The notes beneath the pieces were generated by a model. It was not told the origin of the DNA, ran no database searches, and saw only the letters and a list, made by a program, of their open reading frames with translations. The position numbers and the translations under genes are program-made. From Escherichia coli (GTDB lineage: Bacteria > Pseudomonadota > Gammaproteobacteria > Enterobacterales > Enterobacteriaceae), in assembly GCF_003334255.1 (NCBI RefSeq), contig NZ_QOWU01000037.1: a stretch of DNA of 51,502 bases; one strand, 5' to 3'. Below are positions 1 to 38,564 of the stretch, in pieces. Each line of letters starts with the position of its first letter. Within the stretch, counting starts at the first letter, position 1.

Positions 1-208
1 ACGCGAGGCATCGTCTTAACGAGGCACCGAGGCGTCGCATTCTTCAGATGGTTCAACCCTTAAGTTAGCGCTTATGGGGATTTGCCCCCCCGGTAGAGTT
101 GCCCCTACTCCGGTTTTCGAGACCGGTCCAATCATCAAACGAAACATAAAATTAATTCACATTATGAGGAAAAGTATCTTTTTTGTACTTGTAAATTCAA
201 AGGCTTAG

Positions 209-1078
<870 letters not shown>

Positions 1079-1135
1079 GTCTTTAAGTGATAAGCATAAA
1101 CCGCAGCACGATCTTGCATACGACGTGCTACGGTT

Positions 1136-1690
1136 TCATTTATCTCCGACCGGAAACTTCTTATACAGTGTCGATATACCAACATCATAGATGATCGCCA
1201 CCTTCTGGCGAGGAACGCCTGATGCAATTAATCGCCCGGCCTGCGCCCATTGTTCTGGTGTAAGTTTGGGACGACGTCCACCAATTCGTCCCTGTGCGCG
1301 AGCAGCCTCCAGTCCAGCTTTTGTTCGTTCAACAATCAGTTCTCGTTCCATTTCAGCCAGGGCCCCCATCACATGAAAGAAAAAACGCCCCATCGGTGTG
1401 CTGGTATCAATAGCATCCGTCAGGCTGCGAAAATTAACGCCACGTTCGCGCAACTCCTCAACCAGAATGACCAGATGCCGCATACTACGCCCCAGCCGCT
1501 CCAGCTTCCAGACAACCAGAGTGTCACCTGCCGATAATGTCCTGAGCAGTTTTTTCAGTCCCGGCCTTTCGGACTTTGTACCGCTTATCTTGTCTTCAAA
1601 AATCAGCTCGCATCCTGCACAGTTCAGCGCATTACGTTGTAGATCTGTGTTCTGGTCATTTGTTGACACACGTACATAGCCAATAAGCAT
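1136..1690 (-). CDS. pin: DNA invertase, Pin/Gin/Hin-family serine recombinase
   Basis: MLIGYVRVSTNDQNTDLQ...GRIGGRRPKL matches Pin of e14 by recall; start taken at internal ATG 1690 rather than ORF-track 1726. Confidence 0.9.
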   Translation of the reverse strand: MLIGYVRVSTNDQNTDLQRNALNCAGCELIFEDKISGTKSERPGLKKLLRTLSAGDTLVVWKLERLGRSMRHLVILVEELRERGVNFRSLTDAIDTSTPMGRFFFHVMGALAEMERELIVERTKAGLEAARAQGRIGGRRPKLTPEQWAQAGRLIASGVPRQKVAIIYDVGISTLYKKFPVGDK

Positions 1691-1716: not shown

Positions 1717-2130
1717 ATGATGCCATTTGCTTGTTATTTCTGCATTTTCATAAACGTTGGTTTGGGAGAAGCGGCAAGACGAAATGTGGGAACAGGGGAA
1801 AATCAGATACCGGACATGGCTTCATTTAGTGGGGTGAGGGATTATTACGGAAAACAACTTTTGCCAGGAGGGTTGATACTTCAGTGGCTGACGATTCCAT
1901 CAAGTGCAGCAGCCAACGCTGTAACACTGAATAATGGTAATTATCAGCTGTCAGGCTATAAATGGCCCCAGTCATTTGGTGTCCTGTTTGCTGTGTTTGC
2001 TACAAAAGTTTCTGGCTCGACTAACGAAGCATATGCAATCTCAGTTAATCGTCACTCTACCGATGTAATTGTCACCTGGAATGCCCGTAAGGCTGATGAT
2101 GTCCACATTTTAGGAATTGGGAAATTATGA
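1717..2130 (+). CDS. Alternative tail-fibre C-terminal variable segment (silent orientation; no independent start)
   Basis: ORF begins inside the inverted repeat, shares LGLGEA junction with expressed fibre, followed by its own tfa. Confidence 0.5.
1752..1772. repeat. Left inversion crossover site (pix/gix-like inverted repeat)
   Basis: Inverted-repeat partner of 3460..3480, directly upstream of pin start. Confidence 0.55.
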
Positions 2131-2546
2131 AAATGAAATGGTCACCATCTGTTCAGGGATTTTTCTCTGAAAATAACAGCGATATTCCCGATGATGCTTT
2201 CGATATTGAAGATGCTCTTTATTATGAACTTATGAATGGTCAGAGTACGGGGAAAATTATTATCAATAACCCGGATAACTACCCTGTACTTACTGAATAT
2301 CCAGCGAAGACACAGGAACAGGAAATAGCTGAAGCGGAGGGAATGAAAAGTATACTTATTGAACAGGCCAACGAATACATGAACAGTAAGCAATGGCCTG
2401 GTAAAGCCGCTATTGGTCGTCTGAAAGGTGAGGAACTGGCGCAATATAATTTGTGGCTGGATTACCTGGACGCACTGGAACTGGTCGATACTTCCGGTGC
2501 GCCAGATATTGAATGGCCTACGCCTCCGGCAGTTCAGGCCAGATGA
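2127..2546 (+). CDS. Tail fibre assembly protein (Tfa, alternative orientation)
   Basis: 139 aa, Tfa-like; positioned after alternative fibre segment. Confidence 0.7.
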
Positions 2547-2781
2547 CGTCCGGCGCGGTGCTGGTATCTGATTCCATCACCGCGTCGATATTACCAACAT
2601 CATATTCAGTCATTTCCGGTTCCGGTGGTGCTATAAACTCTCCGTCAGAATAGAACCAACCGACGCCTGCATCTATATGATCAATATTTATAATTTCGCA
2701 GTTAGAGAATAAATCACCCTCTCCATCCCAGATAATAATATTTTTCACCACGCCATGTTCAATCAGAGCAAAATTACTCAT
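2518..2781 (-). CDS. Tail fibre assembly protein (Tfa, expressed orientation)
   Basis: 87 aa; C-terminal [12 protein letters not shown] motif parallels [12 protein letters not shown] of the convergent tfa. Confidence 0.6.
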   Translation of the reverse strand: MSNFALIEHGVVKNIIIWDGEGDLFSNCEIINIDHIDAGVGWFYSDGEFIAPPEPEMTEYDVGNIDAVMESDTSTAPDVIWPELPEA

Positions 2782-3764
2782 CAGGCATACTCCTCAACAA
2801 TAACTATTCCCGGGGCACCGTCACCTCCCGATTGAGCCTCACTTCCGGCAGGTGCGCAGGCTCCGCCTCCGCCAGCACCAAAGCCCTCAGCTTTACCACC
2901 ACCACGTCCGCTGAATGATGAAGAACTTGCACCACCTATACCGCCTGAACCTAGTGGTGTATCCCCCCCGGTACCACCTGCAACAGCTTTAACAGAGATA
3001 ACCATTGCTCCTGGTGTTTTTGCACTACAGCGAAATGCTCTTAGTACAGTACCGGACGATGTCGGACTGGCACCCCATGAAATACCCTGAATATATGATG
3101 TGTTTGCAGATGCTCCCCCCGCGCCACCGCCTGTACCACCCGGTGCAGTTATCAGGGAACCGAAATAAGTTGTGCCACCTTCACTACCTGAATTTCTTCC
3201 GGCTCCCCCCCCTTTACCTGCAGCACCGATAATAACGTTGACTTCGAAATCATTATCAACCTCGAAAAATGCTTCAATAAATGCACCGCTCAATCCAGCT
3301 CCGGCTGTTGCCTGCTGATTTTCTGTTGTTTCAGGAACCCCACCGCCGCCGCCACCGCCACCAGAGGCAATGACCCTTATCTTTTTTGTCCCTGGTGTTG
3401 GGATATATTTTCCAGAGCTTTTAAAAATATTCGTGTTTAACAAACGACCAGAGAATCTGGCTTCTCCCAAACCAAGGTTTTCGAGAGCCGTTTGCACAGT
3501 GCCATCCGATTTGATATCGCCAAACGGATTCTTGCGGCTTAACAGCAGCGCACGAAGTGCGGTAAGCATCTGGTCATGCCGCCCTTTCTCCAGGCTGGCA
3601 CCGGAGGCCTCCACCACGCTACAAAGTTCTTCCTGCAACATGTCAAAGTAGTCATCATCCAGATCGGTGGCAGGTGTGCCGGTCTGGGGGTTACCACGGG
3701 TAAAACCGTTCTTACCCGCGCCGAACTTATCCTTCTGCGCGGTTTTCGTGTCTATACGATGCAT
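2781..3764 (-). CDS. Tail fibre protein (constant N-term 3481..3764 + variable Gly-rich C-term)
   Basis: [18 protein letters not shown]-terminus typical of Mu/P2-type fibres; poly-Gly tracts; ATGA overlap with tfa. Confidence 0.8.
3460..3480. repeat. Right inversion crossover site (pix/gix-like inverted repeat)
   Basis: Lies inside tail-fibre CDS at the constant/variable junction (about aa 95). Confidence 0.55.
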
Positions 3765-22019: not shown

Positions 22020-22481
22020 CTATCTGCACTGCTCATTAATATACTTCTGGGTTCCTTCCAGTTGTTTTTGCATAGTGATCAGCCTCTCTCTGAGGGTGAA
22101 ATAATCCTGTTCAGCGGTGTCTGCCAGTCGGGGGGAGGCTGCATTATCCACGCCGGAGGCGGTGGTGGCTTCACGCACTGACTGACAGACTGCTTTGATG
22201 TGCAACCGACGACGACCAGCGGCAACATCATCACGCAGAGCATCATTTTCAGCTTTCGCATCAGCTAACTCCTTCGTGTATTTTGCATCGAGCGCAGCAA
22301 CATCACGCTGACGCATCTGCATGTCAGTAATTGCCGCGTTCGCCAGCTTCAGTTCTTTGGCATTTTTGTCGCGCTGGGCTTTATAGGTAATGGCGTTATC
22401 ACGGTAATGATTAACAGCCCATGACAGGCAGACGATGATGCAGATAACCAGAGCGGAGATAATCGCGGTTACTCTGTTCAT
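22020..22481 (-). CDS. Rz: Spanin inner-membrane subunit Rz
   Basis: [30 protein letters not shown]... near-identical to lambda Rz. Confidence 0.9.
22079..22261 (-). CDS. Rz1: Spanin outer-membrane lipoprotein Rz1 (embedded in Rz, +1 frame)
   Basis: [23 protein letters not shown]...PPPPP; lipobox VVGC. Confidence 0.85.
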
Positions 22482-22975
22482 TGCTGACCCCACAAACAGA
22501 TTTCACGCTCAATCTCACGACGAGTCATGAGACCTTTCCATTGCTTACCGCCAGCATATGTCCAGCGACGTAACTGATCACATGCGCCTTTGATATCGCC
22601 CTGGTTTATTTTGCGAAGAAGCGTCGATGTTCTGAAATTGCCAGCACCCACGTTGTAAACGAATGAGTAAAGAGCGCCGCGCGTTGTTTCCGGTATATCG
22701 ACTTCGATGTATGGGTTAATTTGTCTGGCGACAGTGGCAAGGTCTTTATTCAAGAGTGCTTTGCATTCTGCTTTGGTATACGTTTTACCGAGCATGATGT
22801 CTTTTCCTGTATGCCCGTGACATACGGTCCATACACCAACAATATCTTTGTATGGTATGTAGCTGACACCTTCCAGACCATCGTTACCACTTGGGCCAGT
22901 GATTAACACTGATGCTATAGCAATTGCTCCGCCACCAATAGCAGCAGCAACGGCTTTTCGTAATGATGGAGGCAT
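22478..22975 (-). CDS. SAR endolysin (phage 21 R-type lysozyme)
   Basis: N-terminal SAR helix [18 protein letters not shown] followed by lysozyme domain. Confidence 0.9.
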
Positions 22976-23190
22976 TATTCACCTCTCGCAGCCTTGCGCT
23001 TATCTTCTTTAATCTTGAAATAAAGGTTTGTCAGGTACGTCAGCAGGCCAAATACCAGGCTACCCAGCACACCTATTGCTGCCCACTGTGAGGGCGTGAC
23101 TTTATCGAGCAGCTGTAAAAACCAGTAACCGGCACTACCTGCTGAGGTGCCATAGGCGACACCCGTTGTTAACTTATCCATGGATTTCAT
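22975..23190 (-). CDS. Pinholin (phage 21 S-type holin)
   Basis: [26 protein letters not shown]...; start at ATG 23190 with gaggtg SD. Confidence 0.85.
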
Positions 23191-23778
23191 AACCCCACCT
23201 CGCAGACAAAGCGGGTGTAAATTGAGGGAATACAACGTATCGCAAAAAAGCAGAAACGTAACAGACTCGGAGTCAGTGAATAACTCAGGTATTGAGTTAT
23301 CAGCTAATATCGAGACTCAAAAAATGGAAAAACCAGCTCGACGGCGGGTTTAAGCTGTGTGACGAAGTAACCACTCTTAACAGCATAACCAATTTTTTAC
23401 GTACGTAAACCACTGAATGATATTTATGAGAATGCTACCGAGTGTTCAAAACACCACCACAAATACATAAGAAAACCTCAACAAATAACCAATAAATAAT
23501 TTCCGGCGTTATTTTTAGTTAATTTAAATTAAACCATCGAATTATAGACCCCCCATAAATAACAGCCATTAATATAAATTAGCTAATAGGTTTATTTTTG
23601 TTCAAATAAGAGCCATAAATAGGTTTCGATAGAAAAAGTTCAGATAAAAATAGAGATCTACTTCACAAATTAAATGAGAAACTAAAACTTACATCTTGAA
23701 ATAATCACATTGATTAGATGAATATTTATCGCGCAGTGACATCATTTTTTAATAATAGTTCAAAAAAAAGGGCTCACG

Positions 23779-24861
23779 ATGAAAAAATTAACAGTGGCAA
23801 TTTCTGCTGTAGCTGCATCAGTACTGATGGCGATGTCTGCTCAGGCAGCTGAAATTTATAATAAAGACAGTAACAAGCTGGATCTGTACGGGAAAGTTAA
23901 TGCTAAGCACTACTTCTCCTCTAATGATGCAGATGATGGTGATACTACTTATGCCCGTCTTGGCTTCAAAGGTGAAACCCAAATCAACGATCAACTGACT
24001 GGTTTCGGTCAGTGGGAATATGAATTCAAAGGCAACCGCGCTGAATCTCAAGGTTCCTCCAAAGATAAAACCCGTCTTGCCTTCGCTGGCCTGAAATTCG
24101 GTGACTACGGCTCCATCGATTACGGCCGTAACTACGGTGTAGCATACGACATCGGTGCGTGGACTGACGTCCTGCCAGAATTCGGTGGTGACACTTGGAC
24201 TCAAACAGATGTGTTCATGACTGGTCGCACCACTGGTGTTGCAACTTATCGTAACAACGACTTCTTTGGTCTGGTTGATGGTCTGAACTTTGCTGCTCAG
24301 TATCAGGGTAAAAATGACCGCACTGACGTAACTGAAGCTAATGGTGATGGTTTCGGTTTCTCCACTACTTATGAGTATGAAGGATTCGGTGTAGGTGCAA
24401 CCTATGCTAAATCTGATCGCACTAATAATCAGGTTATCTACGGTAACAACGGTCTGAATGCTTCTGGTCAAAATGCTGAAGTATGGGCAGCTGGTCTGAA
24501 ATATGATGCGAACAACATCTATCTGGCCACCACCTATTCTGAAACCCAGAACATGACTGTTTTTGGTAATAACCATATTGCCAACAAAGCACAAAACTTC
24601 GAAGCTGTTGCACAATATCAGTTCGACTTCGGCCTGCGTCCATCCGTTGCTTACCTGCATTCTAAAGGAAAAGACTTGGGTGTTTGGGGTGATCAGGACC
24701 TGGTTGAATATGTTGATGTAGGTGCAACCTATTACTTCAACAAAAATATGTCCACTTTTGTTGACTACAAAATCAACCTGATTGATAAGAGCGATTTCAC
24801 GAAAGCATCTGGCGTTGCTACCGATGATATCGTTGCTGTAGGTATGGTTTACCAGTTCTAA
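23779..24861 (+). CDS. Outer-membrane porin, prophage-encoded (NmpC/Lc/OmpC family)
   Basis: 360 aa; signal peptide ...AMSAQA; AEIYNKD...; C-terminal YQF; paralog of phoE in the window. Confidence 0.9.
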
Positions 24862-24997
24862 TTTGATTACTAAAAGATATGTTGTGGGAGGCTTTGCCTC
24901 CCCAACATATAAGTGGCTCCCTCAAGCCACTTCCTTTAGAAGCACAACCTTGCTTCTAACTATACAAACCTTCTGTTATATATTACCCTTTATTTTT

Positions 24998-37112: not shown

Positions 37113-37434
37113 GGCCTGTCAGTTTCTCAAGATATCCAGACCTACCGCTACCAACTGGATACGAACAGGCCGCCTACAGGCAACACGCAAAGACCCCACT
37201 AAACCAAAATCTCCTTACCTCACAACGCGACAAGCCTGCATTGCGGCGCTTCAGTCTCCGCTGCATACTATCAAGGTGAGCGCGGGTGATGGCATAACAG
37301 AGGAAAGAAAATGTCACTCTTCCGCAGAGGTGAAATATGGTACGCCAGTTTCACATTGCCGAACGGTAAAAGATTTAAACAGTCTCTTGGAACAAAGGAC
37401 AAAAGGCAGGCGACAGAACTCCATGACAAGCTAA
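37084..37434 (+). CDS. xis: Excisionase-like HTH protein (Xis)
   Basis: [31 protein letters not shown]; agagg SD; 3' end overlaps int, true stop uncertain. Confidence 0.55.
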
Positions 37435-38474
37435 AGGCTGAAGCATGGCGGGTCAGCAAACTTGGTGAAATACCTGATATAACGTTCGAGGAAGCGTGTG
37501 TCAGGTGGCTTGAAGAGAAAGCACATAAAAAATCACTGGACGATGACAAAAGCCGGATCGGATTCTGGCTTCAACATTTCGCAGGAATGCAACTAAGAGA
37601 CATTACTGAATCAAAAATTTATTCAGCAATGCAGAAAATGACGAACCGGCGTCATGAGGAAAACTGGAAACTCAGGGCAGAAGCATGCAGAAAAAAAGGG
37701 AAACCTGTTCCAGAATACACGCCAAAACCAGCGTCCGTTGCAACGAAGGCTACGCATCTTTCATTTATAAAGGCCCTACTAAGAGCCGCAGAGCGTGAAT
37801 GGAAAATGCTGGATAAGGCACCAATTATTAAAGTGCCTCAACCAAAGAATAAACGGATCCGCTGGCTGGAGCCCCATGAAGCACAAAGGCTGATTGATGA
37901 ATGTCCGGAGCCATTAAAGTCTGTTGTTGAATTTGCACTGGCAACAGGCTTAAGACGCTCGAACATCATCAACCTTGAATGGCAACAAATAGATATGCAG
38001 CGCCGGGTGGCATGGATAAACCCGGAAGAGAGTAAATCAAACCGCGCAATCGGCGTTGCGCTGAATGATACTGCATGTCGCGTTTTGAAAAAACAAATCG
38101 GGAATCATCACCGTTGGGTATTTGTGTACAAGGAAAGCTGTACCAAACCAGACGGAACGAAAGCGCCAACAGTAAGGAAGATGCGGTATGACGCAAACAC
38201 AGCCTGGAAAGCAGCGCTGAGGCGGGCTGGTATTGATGATTTCAGATTTCACGACTTGAGACACACCTGGGCAAGTTGGCTGGTTCAAGCCGGAGTCCCG
38301 TTGTCAGTGTTACAGGAAATGGGAGGCTGGGAGTCTATCGAAATGGTTCGTCGATATGCTCACCTTGCACCTAATCACCTTACCGAACACGCACGGCAAA
38401 TAGACTCGATCCTGAACCCATCGGTCCCAAATTCGTCCCAGTCAAAAAATAAGGAAGGTACTAATGATGTGTAA
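37311..38474 (+). CDS. int: Tyrosine integrase (IntD/DLP12-type)
   Basis: 387 aa [22 protein letters not shown]...[10 protein letters not shown]...VRRYAHL; ends 14 bp from tRNA 3' end. Confidence 0.9.
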
Positions 38475-38488
38475 CTTATTGATTTAAA

Positions 38489-38564
38489 TGGTGCCGATAA
38501 TAGGAGTCGAACCTACGACCTTCGCATTACGAATGCGCTGCTCTACCAACTGAGCTATATCGGC
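38489..38564 (-). tRNA. thrW: tRNA-Thr (anticodon CGU), thrW-like; prophage attachment site
   Basis: Reverse complement GCCGATATAGCTCAGTTGGTAGAGCAGCGCATTCGTAATGCGAAGGTCGTAGGTTCGACTCCTATTATCGGCACCA folds as cloverleaf. Confidence 0.9.

Follow-up and report, generated by a model that had tools for sequence, protein, structure and literature searches.

Pseudo-tRNA att relics lie at prophage ends in Escherichia coli K-12, among them ptwF (thrW'), pauD (argU') and pawZ (argW'). Specialised-transducing phages of the lambda gal and lambda bio type carry an att hybrid together with adjacent host DNA after imprecise excision. The tRNA-Ser gene serU is a documented integration site of prophages and islands (PMC8767318; PMC7545054), and the GenBank record of phage SerU-LTIIb (KU052038) labels a fragment equivalent to the one described here as pseudo tRNA-Ser. 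The insertion sequence IS186 uses the target 5'-GGGG(N6/N7)CCCC-3', in either orientation (PMC5009759).

The window, by which we mean the whole 51,502-bp stretch of E. coli DNA that was analysed, begins with a junction of two such mobile-element relics. We hold with high confidence that its first bases are an IS186 end followed by a fragment of serU, and that the fragment is a relic. Like the K-12 relics and that of SerU-LTIIb, it is a 3' tRNA fragment, extending from about the anticodon stem to CCA, and a direct repeat of the integration-target tRNA; its place is the tail-fibre/moron end of a prophage. It differs from them in being displaced to thrW, inside a thrW-using prophage, with only 278 bp of serU flank, and in having a T-loop change of TT to GG and an interruption by IS186. 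The sequence of window 1-130 is acgcgaggcatcgtcttaacgaggcaccgaggcgtcgcattcttcagatggttcaacccttaagttagcgcttatggggatttgcccccccggtagagttgcccctactccggttttcgagaccggtcc. The features are as follows.

1..53, plus strand: sub-terminal non-coding right end of IS186/IS421, assigned by identity to the K-12 copy; the remainder of the element is left of the window
54..76, no strand: IS186 terminal inverted repeat, 23 bp, caacccttaagttagcgcttatg, assigned by its exact reverse complement at the opposite element end
77..88, no strand: putative right-hand copy of the IS186 target-site duplication, gggatttgcccc, inside GGGG(N5-7)CCCC
77..129, minus strand: serU' fragment, assigned by alignment to the real serU; identity starts at 129
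76-91, minus strand: T-arm remnant, from the serU alignment
92-109, minus strand: variable arm (class II tRNA, ggtagag…ctact), from the serU alignment
110-126, minus strand: anticodon stem-loop ccggttttcgagaccgg (ccggtttt…accgg), with the anticodon CGA inside 115-121
130..304, plus strand: AT-rich phage-side arm (P arm) of the putative relic attR and upstream region of the GIY-YIG gene, assigned by the same arm at the serU locus; GC 32%
305..1078, plus strand: LEM-3-like GIY-YIG domain gene, from the RefSeq annotation of a near-identical genome
38489..38564, minus strand: thrW, tRNA-Thr(CGU), the apparent working attL of the resident prophage, called by ARAGORN, with the integrase adjacent

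Seven complete E. coli genomes match the first 300 bases over at least 80% of their length, and almost every genome matches some part of them. Over the whole window the identity to E. coli G1/2 (NZ_CP060083) is 99.9-100%, except for one inverted segment. The order in G1/2 is paoABCD, a yagP fragment, an IS3-family fragment, an AraC-family regulator, the transposase, window position 1, the GIY-YIG gene, pin and the tail genes. The inverted segment is a 1.7-kb piece of the tail-fibre region, 1752-3480, with 21-bp overlaps at 1752-1772 and 3460-3480. It is a Pin/Gin-type invertible host-range segment in the other orientation, and the gene for the Pin recombinase is at 1136-1726 on the minus strand.

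The IS186 end and its target site

Positions 1-76, which the initial annotation had missed as an insertion sequence end, are identified as the right end of IS186/IS421 (IS4 family) by comparison with K-12. Over window 1-78 the identity is 100% to the IS186 that K-12 has between dnaJ and mokC (locus L009, 1801-1878). This copy, at 15387-16732, is listed as IS186 (PMC3045373), and its RefSeq label is 'IS4-like element IS421 family transposase'. In 2,142 E. coli genomes window 1-76 has matches of 100% identity; the median is 3 copies, and plasmids carry them as well as chromosomes. The exact reverse complement of window 54-76, CATAAGCGCTAACTTAAGGGTTG, is present at the other end of the element in G1/2 (L001), BE311 (L003), STEC309 (L013) and the K-12 copy. 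The element measures 1339-1344 bp in L003, L013 and L009, and 1210 bp in the deleted L001 copy. The stop codon of the InsL transposase, whose ORF ends in …PPRSAGSEKKN*, is 95 nt before window position 1 (the ORF ends at L009 1705 and at L001 7905). InsL, a 370-aa DDE transposase, is annotated at the left in the near-identical genomes, frameshifted in G1/2 and STEC309 and intact in BE311. An IS110-family or bridge-RNA-type non-coding end, brought to mind by a 'transposase' of about 330 aa upstream, was ruled out by the inverted repeat and the InsL sequence.

The G1/2 copy (L001 6867-8076) has 1210 bp, compared with 1339 bp for an intact element, and its transposase is annotated as frameshifted; the STEC309 copy, of 1344 bp, is likewise frameshifted. 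Both copies are probably immobile.

The insertion at this point is explained by the match of the relic T-arm to the highly specific IS186 target. The T-arm, GGGGG-ATTTG-CCCCCCC (GGGGGATTTGCCCCCCC), is the sole GGGG(N5-7)CCCC site of the 51,502-bp window, and the uninterrupted site, gagagGGGGGATTTGCCCCCCCggtagag, is seen in 2EC1 (L002) and in L006. In G1/2, where both junctions are visible, the flanks are …GCCCC and GGATTTG…, with a duplication of 11 bp. In STEC309 they are …GCC and GGGATTTG…, and in BE311 …GCCC and GGATTTG…; the duplication is 10 bp in both, and the BE311 element is in the opposite orientation. The K-12 reference copy has the same flank pattern, GGGGATCACTCC on one side and GGATCACTCCCC on the other. 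The right flank in the window begins GGGATTTG…, and pairing it with the left flank of G1/2 gives a 12-bp duplication. The differing duplication limits and orientation show that these are three independent IS186 insertions at one site.

The G homopolymer at the junction (window 77-79 versus L001 8077-8078) has three G's in the window and STEC309 and two in G1/2 and BE311. This one-G difference may mean that the target duplications truly differ, or it may come from an error in sequencing the homopolymer. For the window's own IS186 copy, we infer completeness and the exact target duplication from near-identical genomes that differ by one G. IS186 would have transposed into the relic T-arm, duplicating about 11-12 bp, and the window begins inside the element. 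In the genome of the window, the T-arm/acceptor-stem half of serU (..CCCCTCTCTCCGCCA) should then be on the far side of IS186. On the plus strand, the sequence expected to the left of IS186 is ..GGGGGATTTGCCCC followed by TCTCTCCGCC, the reverse complement of the tRNA 3' end ..GGCGGAGAGA.

The agreement with what is described for IS186/IS421 (K-12 insL1-3) is close. The terminal 76 bp, including the 23-bp inverted repeat, are identical, the target motif fits, the duplications are of 10-12 bp, and both insertion orientations are seen at one site, as has been described (PMC5009759; for the lon promoter, PMC3045373). The mechanism is the same as at the known hot spots in the lon promoter, fimA and menC, whereas the target here is a relic tRNA T-arm within a prophage.

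The serU fragment and its host flank

The reverse complement of window 77-129 is GGACCGGTCTCGAAAACCGGAGTAGGGGCAACTCTACCGGGGGGGCAAATCCCC, and the sequence of the real tRNA-Ser gene, located between mtfA and yodB, is ...GGACCGGTCTCGAAAACCGGAGTAGGGGCAACTCTACCGGGGGTTCAAATCCCCCTCTCTCCGCCA. The fragment matches annotated tRNA-Ser at 96.2% over 53 nt (51/53; E = 4e-15) in 5,423 of 5,426 genomes. The two mismatches to serU are both in the T-loop, changing TT to GG, and homology to serU includes the anticodon loop CUCGAAA. ARAGORN calls the real serU (L005 1477-1566) as tRNA-Ser with anticodon cga, and it calls no tRNA at 77-150 of the window or in the uninterrupted 2EC1 copy. A complete, callable cloverleaf cannot be formed: the tRNA has lost its first 24 nt, with the 5' acceptor strand and D-arm, the T-loop is altered, and IS186 severs the 3' acceptor strand, so that the tRNA's final 12 nt (CTCTCTCCGCCA) are beyond the element. 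The alignment thus identifies window 77-129 as a truncated, inactive 3' fragment of tRNA-Ser(CGA), serU, amounting to the 3' two-thirds of the gene. The RefSeq records examined annotate neither an IS end nor a tRNA att scar here (the entry under the match is 'none').

Uninterrupted copies of the fragment run through the CCA and into 278 bp of serU-downstream DNA (344 bp at 97.1%), where the similarity ends abruptly. The 2EC1 copy, which has no transposase, reads across the site as ...ggcggagagagggggatttgcccccccggtagagttgcccctactccggttttcgagaccggtcc... The other limit of the serU homology is tRNA position 25, at which the AT-rich arm leading to the GIY-YIG gene begins. Essentially all E. coli genomes have the 278-bp sequence downstream of serU, where it adjoins yodB. 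The uninterrupted copy therefore has the arrangement of an attR, a tRNA 3' fragment with phage DNA on one side and the native downstream flank on the other.

The same junction is found at the true serU locus. A chimeric query, in which the serU flank from beyond the 278 bp was joined to the GIY-YIG arm, returned 13 genomes with both parts about 350 bp apart, beside yodB at the real serU locus. In one of these genomes, RMDEC332 (L015), the order is zinT, yodB, flank, serU fragment, GIY-YIG gene and tail-fibre genes, and the T-loop still has the wild-type TT. The combination of P arm, tRNA 3' part and host flank, present likewise at the true serU in 13 genomes, marks this as an authentic attR of serU-integrating prophages. 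We therefore interpret the fragment in the window as the fossil attR of a serU-integrating phage, a relic that no longer codes for a tRNA.

At the true serU locus of SX4 (L007 4609-5457), yodB is absent, and an integrase-bearing island with shufflon/PilV genes is located at serU. The serU flank of SX4 is the closest, among those examined, to the copy at the thrW locus (99.3%).

The serU fragment and the GIY-YIG gene together form a conserved block of 1.06 kb, window 76-1136, which is 97.6-99.7% identical at L002 (6001-7061), L003 (4001-5083), L006 (7011-8075) and L015 (3977-5041). Across about 440 genomes the conservation of the block is 97-100%. The limit of the block coincides exactly with that of the adjacent pin or tail-fibre-assembly gene, and the block is joined to at least four different tail-fibre modules, including Pin-containing SfV/e14-like modules, lambda Stf/Tfa/Lom/J and others. 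With such varied partners, it acts as a moron that is portable and sits at the att-proximal end.

The prophage at thrW and the relic in free phages

The genes of the resident prophage run from tail through head, lysis and replication genes to int, over window ~1,100-38,470, and the integrase abuts thrW. In the annotation of L004 the integrase is at 37354-38472 and the tRNA-Thr gene at 38487-38562; the gene is identified as an integrase from this RefSeq annotation. Two morons are placed around the lysis cassette at window ~21,700-24,900, iss, a serum-survival lipoprotein gene (21694-21987), and an ompC-like porin gene (23778-24860), both from the L004 annotation of a near-identical genome.

There is no thrW 3' repeat inside window 1-38488. 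The initial annotation had proposed a search for a tRNA-Thr 3' repeat upstream, and one is indeed present in the near-identical genome of G1/2. This copy comprises the last 48 bp of thrW, beginning in the anticodon loop. It occupies L001 4978-5025, some 3.0 kb to the left of where the window starts, beyond the AraC gene and the IS3 fragment. It marks where the resident prophage really ends on that side (attR). The prophage therefore reaches beyond the left edge of the window, and the GIY-YIG gene, the serU fragment, its flank and the AraC gene are internal cargo. Similar ptwF-like copies of the thrW 3' part are found at L002 4126-4173 and L003 796-844. In 2EC1, the thrW 3' copy lies between this block and a CP4-6-like element, an arrangement that indicates tandem integration at thrW.

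The suggestion that the segment might be a recombination site was thus correct insofar as it is a relic attR; it derives from serU and not from tRNA-Thr, and the resident prophage has its working att site elsewhere. The serU fragment does not make a working pair with the other end of the prophage, which is thrW with the adjacent integrase, for which the partner is the thrW 3' copy. Since the prophage is bounded by thrW and this copy, the serU fragment is a relic and not a working attR.

Could the site nevertheless be live, either as the resident attR or as a secondary attB for serU-specific integrases, allowing prophage-in-prophage integration or arm exchange? The uninterrupted form keeps the whole block of identity between serU and serU-type attP, from position 25 to CCA. 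Two phage-side arms, that of the GIY-YIG block and that of O111, ev099 and mEp332 (described below), are found on the same combination of fragment, flank and AraC block, which a swap at the core could yield, and attB sites inside prophages have been reported (PMC8767318). However, homologous recombination explains the arm swapping equally well, and none of the loci examined has an element integrated into the relic. In the window, IS186 splits the site within the T-arm, and the integrase next to thrW, the flanking thrW copies and the use of the lambda attP by ev099 all point away from serU. We regard a live site as very unlikely. That the relic, its 278-bp flank and the AraC gene circulate as a 'portable attB' for serU-specific integrases inside other prophages is unlikely as well; if true, it would give prophage-in-prophage arrays, or swaps of moron arms (GIY-YIG versus O111/ev099) at the tRNA core.

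The relic block is also carried, at 98% identity, by two free lambdoid phages, ev099 (LR597635; L011/L014) and mEp332 (PV340541; L010 746-2388). In both, the block consists of the IS3 fragment, AraC gene, 278-bp flank and serU fragment, and it is placed between the tail-fibre genes and int, in the b-region. The phage-side arm differs from that of the window; it is identical to the serU attR arm that an O111:H8 strain has at its true serU, and it closely resembles the arm of SerU-LTIIb. Phage ev099 has a lambda-type int and xis, and the lambda attP core, GCTTTTTTATACTAA, is beside int. These features rule out the serU fragment as the attP of ev099.

We propose that the relic probably reached the phages from the host by aberrant excision. 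A temperate phage with the GIY-YIG gene at its tail-fibre end would have integrated into serU, leaving the host-side half of the attR. The serU prophage may then have been excised imprecisely, in a manner like specialised transduction, taking with it the attR and 278 bp of host DNA. Recombination could subsequently have passed the block between lambdoid and SfV-like phages whose integration modules differ. The lineage now at thrW would have gained the TT to GG change and, finally, the IS186 insertion. The relic is now a passenger in the non-essential 'b-region' of such phages, and its carrier here is integrated at thrW. As in phages of the lambda gal/bio type, a complete attR-type junction (arm, tRNA 3' part and 278-bp flank) is held by ev099 and mEp332. 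Unlike in those phages, the captured piece is tiny and contains no host gene, there is a separate working int and attP (lambda-type in ev099), and the capture is one that we infer.

Transfer in the reverse direction would make the chromosomal 278 bp old phage DNA, the P' arm of a decayed prophage, and the phage block the ancestral attP. The identity of phage and chromosome is indeed about 97% from tRNA position 25/29 to +278 and stops sharply there, and in ev099 the fragment faces the int side, as an attP would. However, the 278 bp are located downstream of serU, next to yodB, throughout essentially the whole species, and the relic arms are identical to those of attR sites at the true serU (L008/L012; L015), in an order that fits attR and not attP. 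Furthermore, between the fragment and int lie about 2.4 kb of AraC and IS fragments, and this int belongs to lambda and comes with an attP of its own. Reverse transfer is therefore very unlikely, and less likely than capture from host to phage.

Structure, reading frame and significance

The initial annotation described positions 1-110 as a GC-rich structured segment. The segment is richer in GC than the adjacent arm (56% for 1-110 and 64% for 77-129, compared with 32% for 130-304, before the GIY-YIG gene starts at 305), and its hairpins are real, but it has no unusual structure. The nested short inverted repeats placed at ~30..100 were located by direct reading at 76-88 (ggggatttgcccc, nested in ggggatttgccccccc at 76-91) and at 110-126 (ccggttttcgagaccgg), with a third repeat, ggtagag..ctact, between them at 92-109. 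These hairpins are there because they are arms of the tRNA, the T-arm (ggggatttgcccc) and the anticodon arm with the variable arm between them. The stems have only 4-5 bp, shorter than the 6-nt seed of the repeat finder, which reported solely 6-nt palindromes in 1-200. Neither strand of 1-140 folds with excess stability relative to dinucleotide shuffles (z = -0.73 for the plus strand and +0.32 for the minus strand). In the covariance-model scan with cmscan, no Rfam family reached its gathering threshold; the top match was tRNA-Sec, of the tRNA clan, on the minus strand at 72-149 (21.8 bits compared with 47; E = 0.085), and the remaining matches had E > 0.5. The folding and covariance analyses that had been called for thus gave shuffle-level stability and a sub-threshold match, a lead toward tRNA-Ser and not a family membership. 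The signal that lies far beyond chance is homology, not structure.

These results bear on the idea of a functional structured RNA, a tRNA-like small RNA or other regulatory RNA, upstream of the GIY-YIG gene. What stands of it, in a trivial sense, is that a truncated tRNA-Ser(CGA) supplies the stems, as its anticodon, variable and T arms. The intact sequence of these three arms, the weak tRNA-Sec match and the conservation across about 440 genomes would all favour such an RNA. However, the score is far below threshold, the folding is no better than that of shuffles, and ARAGORN makes no call even where IS186 is absent, with the 5' acceptor strand and D-arm gone and the T-loop changed. In this genome, moreover, IS186 parts the 3' acceptor strand from the rest; its insertion has been tolerated in at least three lineages, and the recent common descent of a mobile block accounts for the conservation. 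A functional RNA is highly improbable. A simple scan of 130-304 found no consensus sigma-70 promoter.

The remaining suggestion, that the 3' end and intrinsic terminator of an ordinary protein gene enter the window from the left, has next to no probability: although frame 1 is open from position 1 to the TAA at 61-63, where the initial annotation had correctly placed a stop, and GC-rich hairpins follow, that frame has only 21 codons, as the identical IS186 copy of K-12 has a stop directly before the point where the window starts, extension to the left in L001 and L009 refutes the suggestion by leading into the body of IS186, whose transposase ends 95 nt upstream in another register, the hairpins are tRNA arms of the opposite strand, and the promoter/terminator scan of 1-400 found no rho-independent terminator (GC-rich stem-loop and T-run) on either strand.

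The segment is ordinary mobile-element debris, and not a novel RNA, a terminator, the end of a coding sequence or an active att site. Both the IS186 end and the tRNA att relic belong to kinds that are already known; what is mildly notable is the recurrent hot spot in the T-arm and the fossil attR in free phages. The three independent insertions imply that a phage-borne tRNA T-arm can act as a recurrent hot spot for IS186. The complete serU attR with its host flank in free phages would record imprecise excision and the exchange of modules as a small datable fossil, and it is possibly a marker of phage ancestry. The importance of these findings is little for biology and somewhat greater for annotation, where an IS end joined to a tRNA-derived att scar can account completely for a 'structured', GC-rich segment at the edge of a contig or window.
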